Shown here: piece after piece, positions 21,652-32,000 of the stretch
Position numbering within the stretch: position 1 is the stretch's first letter
Layout of the letters: every line of letters begins with the position of its first letter
Origin: an uncultured delta proteobacterium
GTDB lineage: Bacteria > Desulfobacterota > Binatia > UBA9968
DNA: 32,000 nucleotides
Reading direction: 5' to 3'
NCBI GenBank assembly: GCA_963755715.1
Contig: CAVWLW010000073.1
Location: 29,720-61,719 of the forward strand
Made by a program: the position numbers and the translations under genes
The notes under the pieces: generated by a model
What the model was told of the DNA's origin: nothing
The model's input: only the letters and a program-made list of their open reading frames with translations
Databases searched by the model: none

Positions 21652-24237
21652 CTACTGCAACACCCGGTAGCGCTGTCTCGGCTCGGACCCGGTTCGGGAC
21701 AAACTCACAACCTCAGAGAAGATCGCTTCAACGACACCCTGAGTCCGACAGTAGAATGACTTAGCGCTTGAAAAGTCCCTCCAAGCCGCGCCGAATCTTA
21801 TCTTCCGTCGAGCTTTTCTTCTTTTTCGTATCACTGTCGTTCGGCGTCTCGTTTTGCTGCGCCGCGGCATCTTTGCCGCCGCCGAGAAACGCTTTTGCAG
21901 ATCGTCGGCTCCCTTGCGCATAAAACCGCGCTGAACCAACTGTCCTAGATAGCGCGTGTCGGGTTTGGGCTTCACATTGGGCATCCGGCCGCTTAACACA
22001 AACGGCACTTCAAGCTGCCCCTGATCATTTAAAAGATATTTAGTCTCACGGGCAGATTGGCTGAGATCAGCGGACAAACGTTGAGAAAAACTGAGCGTAG
22101 AGCGAAAATCGACCTTGCGCGTAAAATCCACCCAACCTTCGCCTTGCACCAGGAAATCCGCGGCCGACATGCGCAGGTTCTTGACGTTGATGCGGCCGTC
22201 AGCCACATCAAAATTCGCTTTTAACTCTTTGAATTCTGTGTCCTTCGCCGTAAACGTTTCCGGATATTTCTGGCGCAGCGACGGATTGATGATATTCGTG
22301 AGGCCGGGCATGCCGGTGATCCCGGTGAGCGCGCCATCGGCGATATTGAAATTGAGTAATGCGCCTTGCAGCACTTCCGCGTCCCCCTGGCCGCGCAACG
22401 CCGGCTTGATCTCCTCCCAATTTTTACCGCTGCCGGAAAGTTTCATGTTCGCGTTCATTTGCCCACGGATATCTCGTTCCGCTTTCGGATCGAGCGCTGC
22501 ATAGAGATCCTTGACGTCGATTCCCTGGACTTTCGAGGCGATGGAAAAGCGCGGCACCGCTTCCTTGAAAGAGTACTCGCCTTCGACCTGCACTGCGCCG
22601 CTGAGCGTGTTGACCCGCAGGCTGCGAATATTGGCGACTTTATCGGCCAAAGAAACGGTCGCGTCGAGGCCTTTGTACGGGACGTTATAAAGCGTGCCGT
22701 CCGCCGAGTTCAATTTTCCTTGGTAAGTCATGTTGCCGTTCGCCATGGCGAATTGGCCTTCGCTCCTCAGATTGCGAATCACATCGGCCTTGCGTTCCTC
22801 GCCCAGCGACGCGCTGTAATCGGCGGGCCAAAGTTCCGCTGTCGACATCTTGTACGTAAGAGTCAGCGGCGCAAACTTTTGGATGGCCGCGGCCAACTGA
22901 ATGCGCGACTTTCCGAGACTCAAGGTCATATCGCTGATATCCGCTTTTTGGCCGGTGAAATTGATTCTCGTGTCGAGATTCTCGATCGGCTTGGAAAACT
23001 CCGGCGGTTTGGCGCTGGCTTTCTTCAAACTCAACACACCCTGAACCTCCGGCACGGCTCCTTTGTCCATCTTGCCGCGCACTTTGGCTTGAAGCTCCAA
23101 TGTGCCTGCGAGTTGATAGCTCGCGATCGCCGGAACGATTTTATCCCAACCTTCGAGAGAAGCTGGTTTGGAATCAACGGAGAGATTAAGGAACGCGCCG
23201 TTGCCGAATTGAATATCTCCCGCGGTAGCCAAGTCCAGCGTGTGAAGCCTAAGTTGGCCTTTGCGAATAGTAAGCTTGTCGCCAGCGTAGCGGGCATCGG
23301 CGGTGAGCGTTAGCGGCATGCCGGCGGGCTTTTGAAATGTTTTGCCATAACGCACCGCCCCTTCCGTGCCTTCAATCTTGCCGTTCACCGCCAGATCCTT
23401 CAGCGTGCCGTTGAACTTTAAATCCTTAACGCGAAACACGCCGGTCAAATCGATGTCCTTGCCCAGAGCGCTTTTCAACTTCGGCGCCGCGGCGTTGAGG
23501 CGGGTCGCATCGAATGGATCGATGTCGAGCTCGCCGTTCAAAGGCACCTGCGTAAAATCGCCGTCCGGACGGAGCGGGCCGACTTTGCTGGTTAATTTTA
23601 AATTCTGCTTACCGGCATAGACGGCGGCGGCAAGCTTGACCGAGAAGGCCCGATTAAAATCGAAATCTTCCACCTTCAAATCGATTTGCTGCAGGCGCAA
23701 GTCGGTACCGTCTTTGCGGTCGAGGTAATGAATATCACCGCCGGAAAGATCGACCAGGGAAACCAACCATGCCGGCTGGCCCGGTTCTTTGGCTGGGGCT
23801 TCTTTTTTCTGTTTTGCCGGAGTCTCTTTCTTTTCCTTGGCGCCTTTCCCGATGGTGGAAAAATTGAATTTGCCATCGGCGTTACGAACGATCTGAATCA
23901 CTGGATCGTGAAGAATGACTCTCTTGACCTGGACTTCCTTTCTAAGCAACGGCCAAAACCGGAGATTGACCTGGAGATCTTTGGCGCGGACAAATTCGCC
24001 CGACGAATAGGCCGGATCGTCGCTCATAGTAAAATCCGCAATTCTCGCGCCGAGGCCGCTCCACAGCGTTGCCTGCACCTCGCCCATCGAGACCTTTCTT
24101 CCAAGCGCGTCCTCGGCTTGCGCGATCAAGTAGCCTTTATTGCGCGCGATCAACGAATTGATATTGAGCAATAGCAGGAACCCGACGACCACCGTGATCA
24201 CTACAATGGCGCCGGCGACGATGATCCATTTACGCAT
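21652..24237 (-). CDS. AsmA-family outer-membrane biogenesis protein with a frame-disrupted C-terminus
   Basis: The ATG at 24237 follows AGGAGG. N-terminal anchor MRKWIIVAGAIVVITVVVGFLLLL, then a long beta-rich body with the AsmA-like start (WSGLGARIADFTMSD). After ...GADDLQK (A4 run, plus-strand 21893-21896) the natural-looking ending AFLGGGKDAAAQQNETPNDSDTKKKKSSTEDKIRRGLEGLFKR* lies in another frame (stop 21761). The listed Arg-rich tail to 21652 is junk. Confidence 0.75.
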   Translation of the reverse strand: MRKWIIVAGAIVVITVVVGFLLLLNINSLIARNKGYLIAQAEDALGRKVSMGEVQATLWSGLGARIADFTMSDDPAYSSGEFVRAKDLQVNLRFWPLLRKEVQVKRVILHDPVIQIVRNADGKFNFSTIGKGAKEKKETPAKQKKEAPAKEPGQPAWLVSLVDLSGGDIHYLDRKDGTDLRLQQIDLKVEDFDFNRAFSVKLAAAVYAGKQNLKLTSKVGPLRPDGDFTQVPLNGELDIDPFDATRLNAAAPKLKSALGKDIDLTGVFRVKDLKFNGTLKDLAVNGKIEGTEGAVRYGKTFQKPAGMPLTLTADARYAGDKLTIRKGQLRLHTLDLATAGDIQFGNGAFLNLSVDSKPASLEGWDKIVPAIASYQLAGTLELQAKVRGKMDKGAVPEVQGVLSLKKASAKPPEFSKPIENLDTRINFTGQKADISDMTLSLGKSRIQLAAAIQKFAPLTLTYKMSTAELWPADYSASLGEERKADVIRNLRSEGQFAMANGNMTYQGKLNSADGTLYNVPYKGLDATVSLADKVANIRSLRVNTLSGAVQVEGEYSFKEAVPRFSIASKVQGIDVKDLYAALDPKAERDIRGQMNANMKLSGSGKNWEEIKPALRGQGDAEVLQGALLNFNIADGALTGITGMPGLTNIINPSLRQKYPETFTAKDTEFKELKANFDVADGRINVKNLRMSAADFLVQGEGWVDFTRKVDFRSTLSFSQRLSADLSQSARETKYLLNDQGQLEVPFVLSGRMPNVKPKPDTRYLGQLVQRGFMRKGADDLQKRFSAAAKMPRRSKTRRRTTVIRKRRKARRKIRFGAAWRDFSSAKSFYCRTQGVVEAIFSEVVSLSRTGSEPRQRYRVLQ

Positions 24238-24507
24238 CAACCCTCCTGACAATACAAAATGCGTTCTCTTCGACGCCCACGGTGGAAAATTGGATACCAA
24301 AGCGGAGGTTTGAAATACCGTCGGGGATCGAAAATGACAGTATAATATCTTCCGAGAAAAAGAGTAGCGGGATCGCCGTCGGCCCGCAACAGTGACGTAG
24401 CGCGTTCCGCTCAGCCGCGGGCGCTCGGTCGCAACGGCGTCTCAAAAAATCAACTGATAAAAGCTCGCAAAAAAACTAATCGAGCCCACTGCCTTGCAGG
24501 GCGGATC

Positions 24508-25284: not shown

Positions 25285-25486
25285 GGTCGAATAAAAGACA
25301 ACGAGTCCGGTTAGAATCCAAAGATGTGCTCAGCTTCATAACCGTCCGGTCGAAGCGATAGGCGCATGCGTTATGTTCTCCGGGATTCGAGTTTAGTCGA
25401 CAAAGAGAAGAGAACGATGCCGCGTTATCCTGGAGGTTTGAGCATGAACACAACAAAATATATGCCAAACATTCACTTGTTTTCTT

Positions 25487-25735
25487 TTACGATTGTTTAT
25501 CGTAGTGGATGCGTACGAGACCGATCAGTATATCCTTCACCAGAGCCAGCTTCAGTCGGTTTTTTTCAGACAACGACTGGAGAGCACAGTAAACGTCATC
25601 GATCTGTTGGAGCAGGAAGCAACAGAGGAAACGCTCGGCGTCGGTCAGCGTATTTTCGCGTCCATCGAACTTTCTTAGCAGAGGTTTAGGAGAGAGTGGA
25701 TGAAGGACTTGCGCAAGAGTGCTCGCAGCGTTCAC
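25487..25735 (-). CDS. Hypothetical small protein (weak call)
   Basis: 82-codon ORF with helical, protein-like composition in an AT-richer patch. It has a GTG start with no Shine-Dalgarno sequence. No family recognised. Confidence 0.25.
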   Translation of the reverse strand: MNAASTLAQVLHPLSPKPLLRKFDGRENTLTDAERFLCCFLLQQIDDVYCALQSLSEKNRLKLALVKDILIGLVRIHYDKQS

Positions 25736-25759
25736 GATGACTGAGATTCGGCTAATCTC

Positions 25760-25956
25760 TCACTCGCCGCTCGGCACGACCGTGCGACCGCGACTCTTGC
25801 ACTTTATAATAAGATGATATGCGCGGCGCTTATGAGGGATTCTTTGTCCAAGCCATCGTTGGGATACACGGCGACGCCGATGCTCGCGGTTATTACCGGT
25901 CCGTCGCGGTCATCGGCGAGTCGGTGCGAAATCCGCCCGGCGACTCGATGACTAGA
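25760..25956 (-). pseudogene. Relic of a GGDEF (diguanylate cyclase) domain C-terminus
   Basis: The minus strand reads VAGRISHRLADDRDGPVITASIGVAVYPNDGLDKESLISAA, then after a frame change ..KCKSRGRTVV. This follows the end of the GGDEF domain (..tvSiGvAvyp.dg.d.e.Ll..AD.AlY.AK..GRN.v). A stop lies immediately upstream, and no GGDEF motif or N-terminal part is present. Confidence 0.6.
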
Positions 25957-26069
25957 TTAGCCAAAAAAAGCGTCAATTTTAGCCATTGTAGCTAGGCCAA
26001 AATGTTAGCAGCTCAAGGGGCGGCAAGTGGGCCTAACATGGCTGTTTAGGCGCGGTGGTTTGAATCGTC

Positions 26070-26444
26070 CTAAAACGGCTGGAACAGTTCGATCGGATTG
26101 CCCGAAGGATCTTCGACTAAGATTTGCTTGCCGCCGTTGCCGGTGACGATTTCGTTACGGAAGCGCGCTCCCGTCTTTTTTAATTTCTCGACCGTCGCCG
26201 CCAAATCCTCGACTTCAATCTGGATGCGATTCCAACCGCCCGGAACGGGACTTTTGCCGTCTGGCATGGTTTGTCCGGCGCCACCGGCGCCGGGCCGGTT
26301 GAGCAATAACTGCAAGTCGCCGCGCGACATGCTCGCGAAGCCCGGCGCTGGATGCATGTCGAGCTTGAAGCCGAGAATATCGGCATAGAAGGGAATCGCC
26401 CGATCGACGTCATCGACAATGTATCGAACATTGACCTTGCCCAT
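26070..26444 (-). CDS. VOC-family (glyoxalase/bleomycin-resistance fold) protein
   Basis: The ATG at 26444 follows GGAGGTG plus 8 nt. VDDVDRAIPFYADILGFKL ... IQIEVEDLAATVEKLKKTGARF...ILVEDPSGNPIELFQ. Confidence 0.8.
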   Translation of the reverse strand: MGKVNVRYIVDDVDRAIPFYADILGFKLDMHPAPGFASMSRGDLQLLLNRPGAGGAGQTMPDGKSPVPGGWNRIQIEVEDLAATVEKLKKTGARFRNEIVTGNGGKQILVEDPSGNPIELFQPF

Positions 26445-26554: not shown

Positions 26555-27934
26555 TTACTGCAACGGCCGTAGCCCTTGCAGCAACGTCGGCAGCAATTCA
26601 GACACGGTCGGGTGGATGTGCATCGCCCGGCTCACGGTCGTATAAGGTGCTTTGGCGTACATGACATCGAGCAGGACGTGAACCACTTCATCGCCGGTGA
26701 CGCCCAGGATCGCCGCGCCGAGGATCGCCTTCGTTTGTGCATCGACGATGACCTTCATGAAGCCCTGAGTCTCACCCTTCTCGACCGCTCGGCTGACGTT
26801 GGCCATGGCACGAGTGGCGACCAGCGCCTGGCGCCCCGAAGCTCGGACTTCCGCTTCGGTCATGCCGGCGCGGCCGAGCGGCGGATCGATGAAAAGCGCG
26901 TAGGTCATGATCCGGTCGGTGACTTTGCGTGGATCGTTGTCGAGAAGATTCGCCGCGACGATCTCATAATCGTTGTACGCCGTGTGCGTGAACGCGCCTT
27001 TGCGGTTGCAGTCGCCGAGCGCCCAGATGCCGGAAACATTCGTGCGCAGTTGATCGTCGACCTTGATATAGCCGGCGCTGTCGGTTTCCACACCGGCTTT
27101 GTCCAAGCCCAAATCCACGGTATTCGGCACTCGCCCGACAGCGAGCAACAAGTGCGAACCTATCACTTGCCGGCTCTCCTCGGCGCAATCGAGACCGACA
27201 ACAATCCGCTCGTTTTGCCGGCCCGTGGTGATGCATTCGGCGTTCAAGCGAATCGTGATGCCTTCTGCTTCCAGGATTTTTTGCACCGCCGCGGAAACAT
27301 CTTCGTCTTCGCGCGAAATCAGGCGCGACGCTTTTTCGACGATCGTGACCTGAGCGCCGAAACGCCGGTACATCTGCGCGAATTCCAGGCCGATATAGCT
27401 GCCGCCGACGATGATCAAATGCTCCGGCAAAAAATCCACGTCCATCATGCTCGAATTCGTGAGGTAACGCACCTCATTTAAGCCGGGCAACGGTGGGATA
27501 AACGCGCGACCGCCGACGTTGATGAAAATTTTTTCCGCTTCCAGGACCTCGTCGTTTACGCGCACGATGCGCGGGCCTTCGAAACGCGCATGGCCGAGAT
27601 ATACGGTGCCGTTTTTAAGACCGCGCATCCAACCCTCCACCCCCTTGTTCGAACGGCCGGAGATTTCATCCTTGCGCGCTTTGACTCTTTTCATGTCGAC
27701 GCCGATATTTCCGTCGATCGCCACGCCATACTCGGCGGCGCGCCGCGCCAGATACGCGGCATAGGCGCTCGCCACCAAGGTCTTGGTCGGGATGCATCCG
27801 GTGTTGACGCACGTGCCGCCGAAATGTTTGCGCTCGACGACCGCCACTCTCATGCCCGCCGTCGACAAACGCGCGGCCAGCGCCGGCCCGGCTTGGCCGG
27901 TGCCGATCACAATCGCATCGAACCGTACGGTCAT
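26555..27934 (-). CDS. Class I pyridine nucleotide-disulfide oxidoreductase (mercuric reductase core / RclA-like / dihydrolipoamide dehydrogenase family)
   Basis: IVIGTGQAGPALAARL FAD motif. Redox-active GGTCVNTGCIPTK. Second Rossmann motif IVGGSYIGLEFA. C-terminal dimerisation domain with HIHPTVSE. Confidence 0.85.
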   Translation of the reverse strand: MTVRFDAIVIGTGQAGPALAARLSTAGMRVAVVERKHFGGTCVNTGCIPTKTLVASAYAAYLARRAAEYGVAIDGNIGVDMKRVKARKDEISGRSNKGVEGWMRGLKNGTVYLGHARFEGPRIVRVNDEVLEAEKIFINVGGRAFIPPLPGLNEVRYLTNSSMMDVDFLPEHLIIVGGSYIGLEFAQMYRRFGAQVTIVEKASRLISREDEDVSAAVQKILEAEGITIRLNAECITTGRQNERIVVGLDCAEESRQVIGSHLLLAVGRVPNTVDLGLDKAGVETDSAGYIKVDDQLRTNVSGIWALGDCNRKGAFTHTAYNDYEIVAANLLDNDPRKVTDRIMTYALFIDPPLGRAGMTEAEVRASGRQALVATRAMANVSRAVEKGETQGFMKVIVDAQTKAILGAAILGVTGDEVVHVLLDVMYAKAPYTTVSRAMHIHPTVSELLPTLLQGLRPLQ

Positions 27935-28128
27935 AGTTTCCCCCCATGCGCCCTCGGCCTAGTCTAATACGACCGTTTAGTCGAAAGTTCGACGCTTTAG
28001 ACGACCTTTCTCTTTCGTGTGAGATTCCCGATCGTCGTGCGCCAGTTAGTTTTGATTCTAGCTTATCTCGGCGCAAGTTGAAGAGCCGGGCGCAAAGAAG
28101 GCTAAAAGAGATGAAATCTTCCATTCCA

Positions 28129-28146
28129 TGCAGGGTAATCCCTGCA
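28129..28146. promoter_or_regulatory. Perfect 18-bp palindrome, candidate enhancer (UAS) for a sigma-54 activator
   Basis: TGCAGGG-TAAT-CCCTGCA is centred about 83 bp upstream of the GG of the candidate -24 element. AT-rich DNA lies in between. Confidence 0.4.
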
Positions 28147-28218
28147 CTGAGCAAACTTTCTTCCGTGTCATTGTGAAACAAATTGTGGAAAATCAATCAA
28201 ATAATCTTTTGCCTTGCG

Positions 28219-28234
28219 TGGCATCAATGTTGCG
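28219..28234 (+). promoter_or_regulatory. Candidate sigma-54 (-24/-12) promoter
   Basis: TGGCATcaatgTTGCg. The GG (28220-21) and GC (28232-33) have the canonical 10-nt spacing and match TGGCAC-N5-TTGC at 9 of 10 positions. It lies about 65-85 nt upstream of the GTG candidates for the next gene. Confidence 0.5.
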
Positions 28235-28296
28235 CTCTCCCTTGGCATTTCGGCCATAAACATCGATTTCTCGATTACCTGTCCTAAATCTGCAGA

Positions 28297-30987
28297 GTGG
28301 AAGGGAGCCTATTCATTGTGAATTTGCCTACGCCGTCATACATCGAGCTATATCGTGCGCGGTTTGGTGAGTTGGATCTGGATGAGTCGGATAAGGTTCC
28401 TAAACAGAAGCGCGTTATAAACGACGGCGAAATATTTTTAAGAAGCAATGGAACTTCACCTTTAGCTAAGAAAATTCCGACGCATCTCAACTCATCCCCC
28501 GGTAAAATTCAACGGCCGCATGTCGGCGGTAAATTCTTATTCGTCGGCAACGAAAAATTTTGGGTGCGAGGAGTCACCTACGGAGCATTCAGACCGGGTC
28601 CAAACGGTCAGGAGTATCATGACCCAACGGTTCTGGAGAGAGACTTTTCTCTGATGGCCGCGAACGGACTCAATGCAGTCCGTATTCCACATACGATGCC
28701 GCCGCGGGAGCTTCTCGACATCGCTCAAAAACATGGCCTTCGTGTCATGGTCGGGTTATCTGCAGAACAGTATGCGGGCTTTTTGATTGACCGAAAAGGT
28801 GCTCCTGACGTTGAAGAATTGGTGCGCGCAAAAGTGCGTTCCTGTGCAGGACATCCTGCGCTTCTTTGTTATGCGCTTGGGAATGAGATCGCCGCACCTG
28901 TCGTTCGGTGGCTGGGCCGCGGACGAGTAGAGAGTTATCTCGAGAGCCTGTACTGGGCGGTGAAAGCAGAAGACCCGAACGCCCTCGTCACTTACGTAAA
29001 TTATCCTACAACCGAATACCTTCATCTTCCTTTCTTAGATCTCGTGACTTTCAACGTTTACCTTGAATCGGAGAACCAGCTTGACGGCTACTTGGCCCGA
29101 CTCCATAATATTGCCGGAGATCGACCCCTGCTGATGAGCGAGATCGGTCTCGACAGTCTTAGAAATGGCGAGACAACGCAGGCGCAGGCACTCGAGTGGC
29201 AACTCCGCAGTACCTTCGCGCCGGGCTGTGCAGGGGCCTTCATATTTTCGTGGACTGATGAGTGGCACAGGGCGGGTGCCGAAGTCGAAGACTGGGCATT
29301 TGGCATCACCGCTCGTGATCGTCGTCCCAAACCCGCTCTCAAAGCGGTCCGGGAGGCATTCACCAAGGTCCCCTTCGCAAAGGAACTCCACTGGCCGAAG
29401 GTTTCTGTCATCGTATGTACCTTTAACGGCAGCCGCACTCTCTCTGAATGTTTGGAAAGTTTGCTAAGGCTTGAGTATCCTAACTACGAAGTAATCGTGG
29501 TGAACGATGGTTCGACGGATGCTACTGCAAAGATTGCCCATAGCTATGGCTTTCGAGTGATAACAACCGAAAATCGCGGACTCTCTTCCGCGCGCAATAC
29601 GGGACTCAATGCAGCTACGGGAGAAATCGTCGCGTATATTGACGATGATGCCTACCCCGACCCGCACTGGTTAAAATATATTGCCAGTGCGTTCATGAAT
29701 TCGAAACATGTTGGAGTCGGCGGTCCGAACATCGCACCGCCCAATGATGGACCTATTGCCGAGTGCGTCGCCCATTCCCCGGGAAACCCGGTGCACATTC
29801 TGCTGTCCGACACTGAGGCCGAACATATTCCCGGATGCAATATGGCCTTTCGCAAAACCGCTCTGGAAGCCATTGGCGGATTCGATCCGCAATTTCGCAT
29901 TGCCGGAGACGATGTGGACGTTTGCTGGCGCCTGCAGCAAAAAGGGTGGACTCTAGGATACAGCCCAGGAGCAATGGTTTGGCACCACCGGCGTAATTCG
30001 ATTCGAGCCTATTGGAAGCAGCAGCGCAATTACGGCAAAGCGGAATCGTTTTTGGAGAAAAAATGGCCGGAGAAGTACAATCTCGCGGGCCATGTCACGT
30101 GGGCGGGCCGAGTCTACGGGAATGGCCACCAATATAAGGCATGGAGCCAAGGACGGATTTATCATGGCGTGTGGGGCAGCGCGCCCTTCCAGTCTATTTA
30201 CCAATCACCGGCCGGGGCCTTAGAATCTTGGTTGTCCATGCCCGAATGGTACTTGGCCGTCGCCGCGCTTCTTCCGATTGTTGCGCTCGGCTTCCTCTGG
30301 TTTCCCTTATTCTATGCTCTGCCGTTCCTGGCGTTAGTGCTTTACGCACCGATTTTCCAAGCCGTGATTAGTTCGTCACGAGTCGGCTTTTCAGCCGCGC
30401 GAAGATCTCCCTTTGACTGGGTTAAACTGCGCAGCGTCACGGCACTGCTGCATTTACTCCAACCTCTGGCGCGCCTAAGCGGACGCCTGCGTTCCGGACT
30501 CACTTTCTGGAGATACAAGGCATCCGGCTTTGTGATGCCCTGGCCGCGGAAATTTGCCGTTTGGACCGAGCATTGGCGCGATCCCAATGAAAGATTGAAA
30601 TCTTTCGAAGCGGATTTGCGCAAGGCGGGGGTTTACGTTCGGCGAGGCGGAGATTACGATCGATGGGACTTGGAAGTGCGTGCCGGGTTGCTTGGCTTTG
30701 CGCGCTTGCTCATGGCGGTGGAGGATCACGGTGCCGGTAACCAATTTGTCCGAGTTCGGCTCTGGCCTAAGTGTTCACTGCTGGAGCTTCTTCTTCCCTT
30801 TTTATCCATTTCCCTTTCCGCTGCGGCAGCGCTTGATAACGCATGGGTGGCTTCCGCTATCCTAGGTCTGTTGAGCGTTTTTCTAACGATATACAGTCTG
30901 CGTGGTTGCGGGAGCGCCATTGCCGCAATCCTTCGCACCTTCCAGCATTCGGATGCCATTCATGACAGACAAAAAGAAATACAATAG
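28297..30987 (+). CDS. Tri-domain polysaccharide synthase-like protein: clan GH-A TIM-barrel glycoside hydrolase + GT2 glycosyltransferase + C-terminal polytopic membrane domain
   Basis: GH part: WVRGVTYG, ALGNEI (acid/base NE) and LLMSEIGLDS (nucleophile E). GT2 part: VSVIVCTFNG, VVNDGSTD, AYIDDDAYPD (DxD), GCNMAFRK, WKQQRNYGKAE (QxxRW-like). Four or more TM helices follow. The start is uncertain (GTG 28297 or 28318). Confidence 0.75.
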   Translation: MEGSLFIVNLPTPSYIELYRARFGELDLDESDKVPKQKRVINDGEIFLRSNGTSPLAKKIPTHLNSSPGKIQRPHVGGKFLFVGNEKFWVRGVTYGAFRPGPNGQEYHDPTVLERDFSLMAANGLNAVRIPHTMPPRELLDIAQKHGLRVMVGLSAEQYAGFLIDRKGAPDVEELVRAKVRSCAGHPALLCYALGNEIAAPVVRWLGRGRVESYLESLYWAVKAEDPNALVTYVNYPTTEYLHLPFLDLVTFNVYLESENQLDGYLARLHNIAGDRPLLMSEIGLDSLRNGETTQAQALEWQLRSTFAPGCAGAFIFSWTDEWHRAGAEVEDWAFGITARDRRPKPALKAVREAFTKVPFAKELHWPKVSVIVCTFNGSRTLSECLESLLRLEYPNYEVIVVNDGSTDATAKIAHSYGFRVITTENRGLSSARNTGLNAATGEIVAYIDDDAYPDPHWLKYIASAFMNSKHVGVGGPNIAPPNDGPIAECVAHSPGNPVHILLSDTEAEHIPGCNMAFRKTALEAIGGFDPQFRIAGDDVDVCWRLQQKGWTLGYSPGAMVWHHRRNSIRAYWKQQRNYGKAESFLEKKWPEKYNLAGHVTWAGRVYGNGHQYKAWSQGRIYHGVWGSAPFQSIYQSPAGALESWLSMPEWYLAVAALLPIVALGFLWFPLFYALPFLALVLYAPIFQAVISSSRVGFSAARRSPFDWVKLRSVTALLHLLQPLARLSGRLRSGLTFWRYKASGFVMPWPRKFAVWTEHWRDPNERLKSFEADLRKAGVYVRRGGDYDRWDLEVRAGLLGFARLLMAVEDHGAGNQFVRVRLWPKCSLLELLLPFLSISLSAAAALDNAWVASAILGLLSVFLTIYSLRGCGSAIAAILRTFQHSDAIHDRQKEIQ

Positions 30988-31918
30988 TTTTGAGCTTTAC
31001 CGGCGGCTATTACTTGAAGTAAGGCCTTATTACACGCACATAGGGGCGATTCTATTGATCACCTTGTTATCGCCCCCCCTCGCTCTGCTGATCCCATTGC
31101 CTTTGAAAATTGCGGTCGATAGCGTCATTGGCTCCCGTCCAATACCAGCGTTTCTACAGCAAGTAATACCTGAGGCTGTCACCGGGTCTCCTAATGGCAT
31201 GGTGACGTTCGTCGTGGCTCTAATGATGCTCGTTGCCCTTCTCGGCGGACTCCAACGGGTCGCTAGTACGTTGTTGCGCACCTATACTGGCGAAAAGTTA
31301 ACATTAGCATTCCGAAACAAACTGTTTCGCCACGTCCAGCGGCTTTCGGTCTCATATCACGATACGAGAGGAACAACTGATTCCACCTATCGCATCCAGT
31401 ATGATGCTCCTGCGATTCAATGGATAGCCGTCGATGGTTTGATACCTTTTGTCGCTTCAGCATTGACTGTCGCCGGGATGATTTACATTATCGCCCTGCT
31501 CGACTCGCAGTTAGCGCTGGTTGCGATCGCAGTTACACCAGTTTTATACCTTGGCGCGCGAACGTTTAATTCGCGGCTTCGCAACCAGTGGGGCGATATT
31601 ATGCACTTGGAAAGTTCCGCTTTTTCCGTAGTGCAAGAAGCCCTAAGTGCCTTGCGCGTGGTTAAAGCCTTCGGTCAAGAAGAGCGAGAACAAGAGCGTT
31701 TTGTTCGTCACTCTAGCGAGAGCTTTTCTAGCACGAGTTCGGGCTGCATGGTCAGAAGGGGCTTTCGATCTTCTGATTGGAACTACTACGGCAGCCGGAA
31801 CAGCTGCAGTCTTATTTTTGGGTCTGCGACATGTCCAGTCAGGGAGCTTAACACTCGGCGAGTTGATGATGGTCATGTCCTACCTGGCACAGCTATTCGG
31901 ACCCTTGGCGTCACTTAG
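30953..31918 (+). CDS. ABC exporter, fused permease/ATPase (MsbA-like), N-terminal TMD fragment
   Basis: The ATG (30953 or 30962) overlaps the end of the upstream gene by 26-35 nt. Typical ABC_membrane features: YRRLLLEVRPYY, LSVSYHDTRGTTDSTYRIQYDAPAIQ, SALRVVKAFGQEEREQERF. The frame breaks at the T4 run 31724-31727, and the listed tail is junk. Confidence 0.8.
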   Translation: MPFMTDKKKYNSFELYRRLLLEVRPYYTHIGAILLITLLSPPLALLIPLPLKIAVDSVIGSRPIPAFLQQVIPEAVTGSPNGMVTFVVALMMLVALLGGLQRVASTLLRTYTGEKLTLAFRNKLFRHVQRLSVSYHDTRGTTDSTYRIQYDAPAIQWIAVDGLIPFVASALTVAGMIYIIALLDSQLALVAIAVTPVLYLGARTFNSRLRNQWGDIMHLESSAFSVVQEALSALRVVKAFGQEEREQERFVRHSSESFSSTSSGCMVRRGFRSSDWNYYGSRNSCSLIFGSATCPVRELNTRRVDDGHVLPGTAIRTLGVT

Positions 31919-32000
31919 CGAGATGACGGCACGTGCGCAACGCTCACTTGCCAGTGCGGAGCGCGCATTCGCGCTTTTGGATGAAGCCCCTGACGTCGTT
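31725..32000 (+). CDS. Continuation of the ABC exporter TMD in the +1 frame; runs off the window
   Basis: It reads FLARVRAAWSEGAFDLLIGTTTAAGTAAVLFLGLRHVQSGSLTLGELMMVMSYLAQLFGPLASLSEMTARAQRSLASAERAFALLDEAPDVV, the canonical TM5-TM6 and linker region that precedes the NBD. Confidence 0.8.

Follow-up and report, generated by a model that had tools for sequence, protein, structure and literature searches.

The export of bacterial glycans is usually sorted into Wzx/Wzy pathways, ABC-2 systems of the Wzm/Wzt type and translocating synthases, with the cyclic-glucan systems as special cases. The cyclic beta-1,2-glucan synthase (Cgs/NdvB/ChvB), a protein of about 2800 amino acids (aa), combines glycosyltransferase family 84 (GT84), glycoside hydrolase family 94 (GH94) and cyclase domains, and its exporter is the MsbA-like ATP-binding cassette (ABC) protein Cgt/NdvA/ChvA. 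NodC, a membrane GT2 enzyme with the QxxRW motif, makes its oligosaccharide at the cytoplasmic face; NodB, NodL and NodS tailor it, and NodIJ exports it. The NdvB ('orphan' BcsA-like) of pseudomonads and bradyrhizobia is a fusion of GH17 and GT2 that acts as a cyclic beta-1,3-glucan synthase, and in an in silico model of it the periplasmic GH17 domain cleaves and cyclises the GT2 product, with channel-forming transmembrane (TM) helices between the domains (PMC10237404). MftF builds a cellulose-like beta-1,4 oligosaccharide (glucan chain) on a soluble cofactor (PMC7491314). Herein, we analysed a stretch of 32,000 nucleotides (nt) from an uncultured delta proteobacterium (the window; positions 29,720 to 61,719 of contig CAVWLW010000073.1), in which a single open reading frame (ORF) joins a clan GH-A barrel, a GT2 domain and four TM helices and is overlapped by the gene of an MsbA-like ABC half-transporter. 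We propose that the fusion is a beta-glycan synthase of the cytoplasmic face, equipped with a domain of its own for trimming or transglycosylation, and that it would feed a dedicated ABC exporter; we put the probability of this reading at roughly 0.55.

Like NdvB, the fusion protein holds a clan GH-A TIM barrel and a GT2 domain in one polypeptide. Unlike that of NdvB, its barrel is GH2_C/GH158-like (Pfam gave no match to GH17, PF00332, in the fusion protein), is directly joined to the GT2 domain and is predicted to be cytoplasmic; in addition, there are only four TM helices, all after the GT2 domain, and a coupled, separate ABC exporter. The likeness to Cgs and ChvA would lie in a membrane protein that unites, on the cytoplasmic side, a glycosyltransferase with a glycan-processing domain (transglycosylase or phosphorylase) and is served by MsbA-like export, but the families are unrelated and the ABC protein described here scores below the ChvA/NdvA cut-offs. 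The accessory genes near the fusion family recall the Nod system, since they include YdjC, hexapeptide acyltransferases and methyltransferases, whereas NodC has no GH domain and NodIJ is of the ABC-2 type, not MsbA-like.

The ORF encodes 896 aa according to the ORF listing of the window, and residue numbers throughout refer to it. GTG 28318 is the likely true start of the gene, with a product of 889 aa, because it is preceded by GAAGGGAG and agrees with the start of the nearest database protein (P0001; 99% identity, 889 aa), which begins seven codons later than the 896-aa ORF. The Pfam match to Glyco_hydro_2_C (PF02836) covers residues 80-358 (E = 8e-13; score 48.6 bits, cut-off 21), that to Glycos_transf_2 residues 370-526 (E = 2e-34) and that to Glyco_trans_2_3 residues 444-680. 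The AlphaFold2 (AF2) model of the fusion protein had a mean predicted local distance difference test score (pLDDT) of 74.7 and a predicted template modelling score of 0.72. The gene is laid out as follows.

28297..30987, + strand: GH-A/GT2/4-TM fusion gene (ORF listing, Pfam, match to P0001)
28297..28512, + strand: N-terminal extension of about 70 aa (predicted disordered, pLDDT <35; low hydropathy)
28513..29376, + strand: clan GH-A (beta/alpha)8 barrel, residues 73-360 (Pfam GH2_C, GH158 and GH2 alignments, Foldseek, conservation)
29395..30066, + strand: GT2 (GT-A) domain, residues 367-590 (Pfam, NCBIfam, PDB search, Foldseek, alignments)
30067..30237, + strand: conserved segment rich in Trp, Tyr and Gly, residues 591-647 (alignments; low-confidence model)
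30238..30378, + strand: TM hairpin 1, residues ~648-694 (hydropathy; AF2 helices 651-666 and 669-694)
30379..30774, + strand: soluble insert between the hairpins, residues ~695-826 (model, alignments)
30775..30915, + strand: TM hairpin 2, residues ~827-873 (hydropathy, AF2)

The N-terminal extension is lineage-specific, being missing or variable among the aligned homologues, and hydropathy revealed neither a signal peptide nor a TM helix in it. The sequence-only reading of this DNA had described an 896-aa ORF in which a GH-A signature, a GT2 set and a C-terminal multi-TM region are combined. Every motif quoted there was found (GNEI 195-198, SEIG 281-284, DGSTD 404-408, DDD 449-451, GCNMAFRK 513-520 and QQRNYG 575-580), and Pfam agrees. 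The TM helices at the C-terminus also exist, but they number four only, in two hairpins split by a soluble domain of about 130 aa.

Given that an indel could have produced such a fusion artefactually, its distribution carries weight. A protein search retrieved 7879 proteins at E <= 1e-10 among 8000 scored candidates, and the 120 proteins listed all cover at least 72% of the query, nearly all with the same Pfam set. When one genome per species was scanned, full-length homologues of 50% identity or higher turned up in at least 590 genomes, which span more than ten phyla; the best 80 are 50-80% identical over about 800 residues. The carriers belong to Acidobacteriota, Chloroflexota, Gemmatimonadota, Actinomycetota, Nitrospirota, Planctomycetota, Verrucomicrobiota, Bacteroidota (for example Nibrella saemangeumensis JCM 17927), Bacillota, Chlorobiaceae and several proteobacterial and deltaproteobacterial lineages; the relatives of the window sequence itself are labelled 'Candidatus Acidiferrales' (Acidobacteriota). 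When the GH domain alone was searched exhaustively, 548 representative clusters (50% identity clustering) were obtained at E <= 1e-30, and most of the complete ones are 815-940 aa long, which is again the fusion architecture. The plasmid collection yielded matches to the GT2 domain only and no full-length homologue. Both domains stand in one frame in 34 full-length and 70 cross-phylum homologues, and on these comparative data an artefactual fusion is rejected.

The barrel consists of eight beta-alpha units over residues 90-316 in the AF2 model, where N196-E197 directly follows the strand 189-194 and E282 terminates the strand 278-283. E197, in an NE motif after beta4, is the predicted acid/base, and E282, after beta7, the predicted nucleophile. 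The Foldseek matches of the barrel include the GH2 beta-galacturonidase 6ncw (E = 2e-11), GH5_18, GH158 (9p26) and GH157 (9fz9), and the GH domain alone matched GH158(Pro) among the PDB sequences at E = 5.6e-8. In the alignment with GH158(Pro), 'HPAVLMWALGNES' is paired with 'HPALLCYALGNEI' and 'DRPWLVTEFG' with 'DRPLLMSEIG'; the aligned Glu residues of GH158(Pro) are chain residues 135 and 221, which correspond to Glu143 and Glu229. E197 and E282 also align with the catalytic Glu residues of GH2, and some homologues pass the Pfam cut-off for the GH72 glucanosyltransferases. Conservation was scored in 84 sequences, none closer than about 50% identity: R129 is kept in 80, N196 in 80, E197 in 81 and E282 in 83 of them. 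A GH-like region without the catalytic Glu pair, which would have spoken against the sequence-only reading, is therefore not what the alignments contain.

On this evidence the barrel looks like a competent retaining enzyme of clan GH-A. It does not look like GH2 proper in the sense of CAZy, because the N-terminal sugar-binding and immunoglobulin (Ig)-like domains are missing; only PF02836 is present, with about 70 disordered residues before the barrel. With the enzymes of GH158, GH157, GH2, GH5_18 and GH72, the barrel shares its (beta/alpha)8 fold as well as the positions of the NE motif (after beta4) and of the nucleophile Glu (after beta7). Those enzymes, however, are secreted, periplasmic or free, with catabolic or wall-remodelling roles, whereas the barrel described here sits in a biosynthetic fusion and lacks both the sugar-binding and Ig domains of GH2 and the Ig domain of GH158.

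The side of the membrane on which the barrel lies had been raised as a check. No hydrophobic segment was found in residues 1-640 (maximum 19-aa window hydropathy, 1.16), nor a signal peptide; the GH and GT2 domains are joined by only about seven residues, with no TM helix between them, and hydrophobic helices occur solely at residues ~648-694 and ~827-873, in two hairpins around the insert of about 130 aa. Since the GT2 domain must reach nucleotide sugars and no TM helix or signal peptide precedes residue 640, we infer that both catalytic domains are cytoplasmic, the GH domain lying on the same side as GT2. The C-terminus should likewise be cytoplasmic, because the number of TM helices is even. 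The earlier comparison with PslG, PelA and BcsZ consequently holds only loosely, those hydrolases being periplasmic. In two homologues, P0161 (1263 aa) and P0166 (1256 aa), an NHL-repeat beta-propeller follows the membrane region at the C-terminus and may be an extracytoplasmic add-on.

In the GT2 domain, the motifs are D404, D449-D451, GCN 513-515, GDD 537-539, W562-H563 and QQx(N/G)YG 575-580, so that the D, DxD and (T/G)(E/D)D catalytic motifs of processive GT2 synthases are all present. Across 70 cross-phylum sequences, conservation reaches 95% or more at each of D404, D449-451, G513-C514-N515, G537-D538-D539, W562-H563, Q575, Q576, Y579 and G580. In the homologue alignment, R577 varies and Asn or Gly stands at position 578. 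We take QQRNYG to stand at the position of QxxRW, judging from its spacing from GDD, the BcsA and PgaC sequences and the alignment with MftF; a profile search against the PDB did not confirm this placing. In that search, residues 500-600 gave only weak matches, to K4CP and ppGalNAc-T (E ~0.03-0.05). The separate alignment with Escherichia coli BcsA ends at residue 555. The W-to-Y change in QxxRW had been singled out in the sequence-only reading, and the Tyr is indeed there, but the Arg is gone as well: both the Arg and the Trp are replaced in the family consensus QQx(N/G)YG, and Tyr-Gly is common to MftF. The change thus also occurs in an iterative GT2 enzyme that does not translocate its product.

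The best NCBIfam model for the GT2 domain was MftF (TIGR03965), at 168 bits against a cut-off of 280, and the NodC model scored just 34 bits against the fusion protein. In pairwise comparison with an annotated MftF, identity was 33% over 240 aa, with 'AEDVDLCWRL...RRRFYGTG' opposite 'GDDVDVCWRL...KQQRNYGKA'. The Foldseek neighbours of the domain are generic GT2 enzymes (BcsA, PcManGT, WrtF, K4CP and HAS). Thus the likeness to MftF, which is iterative and non-translocating, lies in the AxDVDxCWRL motif and in Tyr-Gly instead of Arg-Trp; MftF differs in having neither a GH domain nor an ABC partner, and the fusion protein scores below the MftF cut-off. Neither the window nor the sister contig L001 contains mft genes. 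A TM channel around the GT domain, as in BcsA, PgaC, HAS and NodC, is not seen, there being no TM helix before residue 640. With only four C-terminal TM helices, and both Arg and Trp missing, the framing as a processive QxxRW synthase has to be given up, and judged by its sequence the fusion protein is not a BcsA/PgaC-type translocating synthase.

After the GT2 domain, K589, W590, P591, W602, G604, Y607, G624, W626 and Q632 are invariant in segment 591-647 and just before it. The pLDDT is below 50 at residues 601-641, and the segment may be a membrane-interface or acceptor-binding region. The insert between the hairpins (residues 695-826) was modelled from a C-terminal fragment (pLDDT 77.8) as a long helix followed by a beta-alpha-beta4 unit. 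Its conserved residues are P723, R726, L727, G729, R730, W756, G784, W790, D791, E809, H811, G814 and Q816, with P723, R726-x3-R730, W790-D791 and E809-x-H811 invariant. No Pfam match was found for the insert in 15 orthologous C-terminal regions, and Foldseek against the PDB gave nothing at E <= 1e-3 for the fragment, only weak START/SRPBCC-like and KA1-like matches. This weak resemblance to START and KA1 folds hints at lipid or membrane binding. A PilZ (cyclic di-GMP) domain was considered on account of R726-x3-R730 before the beta-rich part and was rejected, no PilZ being among the top 50 PDB matches.

The next gene begins within the synthase gene and is interrupted within the window, as listed here.

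30953..32000, + strand: MsbA-like ABC half-transporter, 5' part with the transmembrane domain (TMD), running past the window end (PF00664)
31729, + strand: extra T relative to L001, which shifts the ABC frame and leads to a premature stop at 31916-31918

The ABC ORF carries ABC_membrane (PF00664, E = 2e-29), and the window covers only its TMD part. The candidate starts are ATG 30953 and ATG 30962, and the synthase stop lies at 30985-30987, so that the overlap is 35 or 26 nt, which bears out the 26-35 nt given in the sequence-only reading. The ABC frame ends at the stop at 31918, and the conserved continuation up to the window end is encoded in another frame. Over 13.7 kb, the window is 98% identical to L001 with 20 indels, the T at 31729 being the sole indel within 28200-32000, and L001 has its own, different split of the ABC gene further downstream. 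Twenty indels in 13.7 kb suggest an indel-prone (possibly long-read) consensus, and we consider that the frameshift is as likely to be a consensus error as a real pseudogene. Intact orthologues of 601-606 aa with PF00664 and PF00005 are present in L002, L003 and L005. The claim that an MsbA-like ABC exporter is the next gene thus holds for the TMD family and the overlap, but the reading frame is broken in the window.

By its sequence features, the ABC protein is a generic type IV half-transporter with TMD and nucleotide-binding domain (NBD) in one polypeptide. Against the NCBIfam models it scored 421 bits for MsbA (cut-off 602), 335 for the glucan ABC transporter (733), 288 for ChvA (585), 340 for HepA (725) and 171 for PglK (1000). 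With MsbA and PglK it shares the fused TMD-NBD half-transporter build of type IV exporters (PF00664 plus PF00005); it differs in being specifically linked to the fusion synthase across phyla, sometimes in one polypeptide, and in reaching no equivalog cut-off.

This linkage was assessed in 84 non-redundant loci, in which ORFs were called and clustered and the result was checked by tblastn; synteny of the ABC gene was counted wherever 2 kb or more of sequence follow the synthase, which is the case in 62 loci. Of these 62, 51 contain the ABC gene, and in 46 of the 62 it lies on the same strand with its start -100 to +700 nt from the synthase end. In the gene calls, the synthase and ABC genes overlap by 1 nt in L003 and by 4 nt in L005. 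Furthermore, two homologues, P0170 (1421 aa) and P0265 (1336 aa), carry GH, GT2, the TM region, ABC_membrane and ABC_tran in one polypeptide, and at the junction within P0170, whose gene lies at L088 1400-5665, the contig shows a single open frame with no alternative-frame ORF. MsbA-type exporters begin with a cytoplasmic N-terminus, and the fusion of synthase and ABC protein therefore supports a cytoplasmic C-terminus of the synthase. The single polypeptide also supports functional coupling. The case for a synthase coupled to an ABC exporter is consequently stronger than had been claimed, since the gene order is kept across phyla and a single-ORF fusion exists.

A third conserved component is a soluble protein family of about 400 aa, with 74 members in 47 loci and one to four tandem paralogues per locus. 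Counted in the loci with at least 6 kb downstream (n = 44), it is present in 37. Its members lie beyond the position that corresponds to the window end, at 14795-18360 in L001 and 15769-18255 in L002. The family has no Pfam or NCBIfam assignment; its conserved motif is GWFSxRSxxYLAxGxPVVxQxTGF, and PDB profile matches to Gtf3 and WbaZ are weak (E >= 0.01). These proteins are probably divergent GT-B glycosyltransferases. In L001, the ABC gene is followed by three such paralogues, two methyltransferases, Acyl_transf_3 and a PMT_2 GT-C gene, which is no standard characterised exopolysaccharide (EPS) locus. The other families found around the synthase are given below.

APH-type kinases: 20 loci
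NAD epimerase/dehydratases: 17 loci
Hexapeptide acyltransferases: 11 loci
YdjC: 9 loci
GT4: 8 loci
UDP-glucose dehydrogenase: 5 loci
DegT aminotransferase: 3 loci
Pyruvyl transferases: 5 of 136 pooled same-strand neighbours
GNAT: 2 of 136 pooled same-strand neighbours

After the module in L003 (16979-22523), there are an LtaS/OpgB-like membrane sulfatase-family gene, a fusion of inositol-1-phosphate synthase and nucleotidyltransferase, and a CDP-alcohol phosphatidyltransferase, a trio that might indicate phospho-polyol decoration of the product.

The upstream window genes (AsmA-like, glyoxalase and Pyr_redox_2-type flavoprotein) are not conserved at other loci and do not belong to the module. 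Among them, a large AsmA/TamB-like gene at 21652-24300 on the reverse strand (882-aa ORF) is not conserved beside the module in other phyla. Within the interval 25285-26070 (about 0.8 kb) there are only short ORFs that overlap one another, and no gene was called there in L001. An Rfam scan of the whole window at gathering thresholds gave no match, and a scan of 27800-28400 for sigma-70 promoters and terminators found nothing.

In the mechanism we propose, the GT2 domain, predicted to be an inverting GT-A enzyme closest to MftF, would iteratively build an oligo- or polysaccharide with beta linkages on the inner face of the membrane, using nucleotide sugars as donors. The GH-A domain would trim, release or transglycosylate (branch or cyclise) the nascent beta-glycan and would thereby fix its chain length or form. 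GT2 enzymes are inverting and form beta-linked products, and most members of clan GH-A are retaining beta-glycosidases; the pairing of the two is stereochemically sensible for that reason. The idea of a hydrolase or transglycosylase built in to work on the synthase's own product thus fits the stereochemistry. The one to four GT-B-like paralogues may then decorate the product, and variable tailoring enzymes (methyl-, acetyl- and pyruvyl-transferases, APH-type kinases, YdjC and amino-sugar enzymes) may modify it further. Finally, the MsbA-like ABC half-transporter, apparently translationally coupled to the synthase, would carry the product, which may be soluble or lipid-linked, across the cytoplasmic membrane.

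Several observations weigh against this mechanism, and some of them fit a lipid-linked product better. In a lipid-linked pathway, the main rival reading, the GT2 domain would glycosylate polyprenyl phosphate, a glycerolipid or another glycolipid anchor, the ABC protein would be a flippase as are PglK, Wzk and MsbA, an extracytoplasmic GT-C or ligase would use the flipped donor, and the GH domain would edit or recycle the lipid-linked glycan. We regard this pathway as a possibility to be taken seriously, though an unlikely one. The ABC protein does score highest against the models of MsbA, the lipid A flippase, but below their cut-off, and PglK matches its NBD only. Genes for PMT_2 (GT-C) lie downstream in the acidobacterial relatives L001, L002 and L007, yet PMT_2 is not among the recurrent gene families beyond these close relatives, and neither the 25 most-matched Pfam families of the 136 same-strand neighbours nor the annotated recurrent clusters include an initiating phosphoglycosyltransferase, Wzx, Wzy or a ligase. 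The succession of GT-A domain and C-terminal TM hairpins is reminiscent of DPMS, GtrB and ArnC, and DPMS (5mlz) was matched at E = 2e-8, over the nucleotide-binding half only. Homologues are annotated 'O-antigen biosynthesis protein' by the Joint Genome Institute, and the folds weakly matched by the insert are lipid- or membrane-binding ones; on the other hand, none of those matches reaches E <= 1e-3, and the closest annotated GT2 relative, MftF, uses a soluble acceptor.

The similarities of the GH domain to GH2, GH158, GH157, GH5_18 and GH72 are at clan level only. The domain could also be a binding or regulatory module despite its kept Glu pair. The barrel would then be catalytically silent, a glycan-binding or scaffold module for acceptor holding or chain-length sensing like the carbohydrate-binding module of Wzt, and the protein a membrane-anchored GT2 enzyme. 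Non-catalytic GH-like domains exist in other systems, and the weak Pfam score (48.6 bits) reflects divergence from characterised GH2 enzymes. We nevertheless consider a silent barrel improbable: the GH-A catalytic set is deeply kept, both Glu residues align with the experimentally supported GH158 pair, and had the module served for binding alone, at least one Glu should have been lost in some lineages. As regards the locus itself, the ABC frameshift means that the module may be inactive here or the assembly wrong, and the check at DNA level covers only P0170 of the two synthase-ABC fusions. The 20 indels and the frameshift point to imperfect consensus quality, which would suit a fusion created by assembly; the same one-frame architecture, however, recurs across many phyla, in 70 genomes, and among the database proteins in thousands. 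Nor does an ordinary, characterised EPS or O-antigen cluster fit, as no NCBIfam equivalog cut-off is reached, Pfam and NCBIfam both lack a model for the partner family, and neither a characterised member nor a biochemical study of any member was found in the open-access literature, a silence that counts against our mechanism too. We give hardly any credence to either of these two explanations. For the partner family, the match to Pfam Glyco_trans_1_2 (E = 4e-5, 24 bits) falls just under the cut-off of 25, and hhalign against GT4 gave a probability of 17% (E = 1.5e-3), so that the GT-B assignment is weak.

We return to the synthase with a built-in GH-A domain and a dedicated exporter. The fusion-ABC pair probably marks an undescribed way of glycan synthesis and export, in which polymerising and glycan-cutting or -transferring domains would stand on the same, cytoplasmic face and the product would be passed to an MsbA-like pump. 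More tentatively, and with considerable doubt, we suggest a previously unrecognised route, in which a cytoplasmic GT2 polymerase with an attached GH-A transglycosylase makes a defined-length or cyclic beta-oligosaccharide and hands it to a physically associated type IV ABC exporter. The module of this speculative route would consist of the fusion protein, the ABC partner and the GT-B-like family, carried by bacteria of soils and sediments from more than ten phyla. Its product could serve as an osmoprotectant like the periplasmic glucans, as a matrix component or as a signal. Such a route, if it exists, would be distinct from Wzx/Wzy, from the ABC-2 type Wzm/Wzt and from translocating synthases, and unrelated in sequence to Cgs/ChvA.

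What sets the proposal apart is its use of other families and another topology. Its design has precedents in Cgs with ChvA/NdvA, in NdvB (GH17-GT2) and in NodC with its tailoring enzymes and ABC exporter, and given these conceptual precedents it makes no break with known principles. The system is experimentally tractable, as carriers such as Nibrella saemangeumensis JCM 17927 are in culture. If the proposal is true, a role would be assigned to a large protein family without a Pfam model, and there would be a second, independent design of 'synthase + built-in transglycosylase + ABC exporter' besides that of the cyclic beta-1,2-glucans. The bacteria that carry it would share a widespread glycan, relevant to soil aggregation, desiccation and osmotic tolerance, and biofilms.

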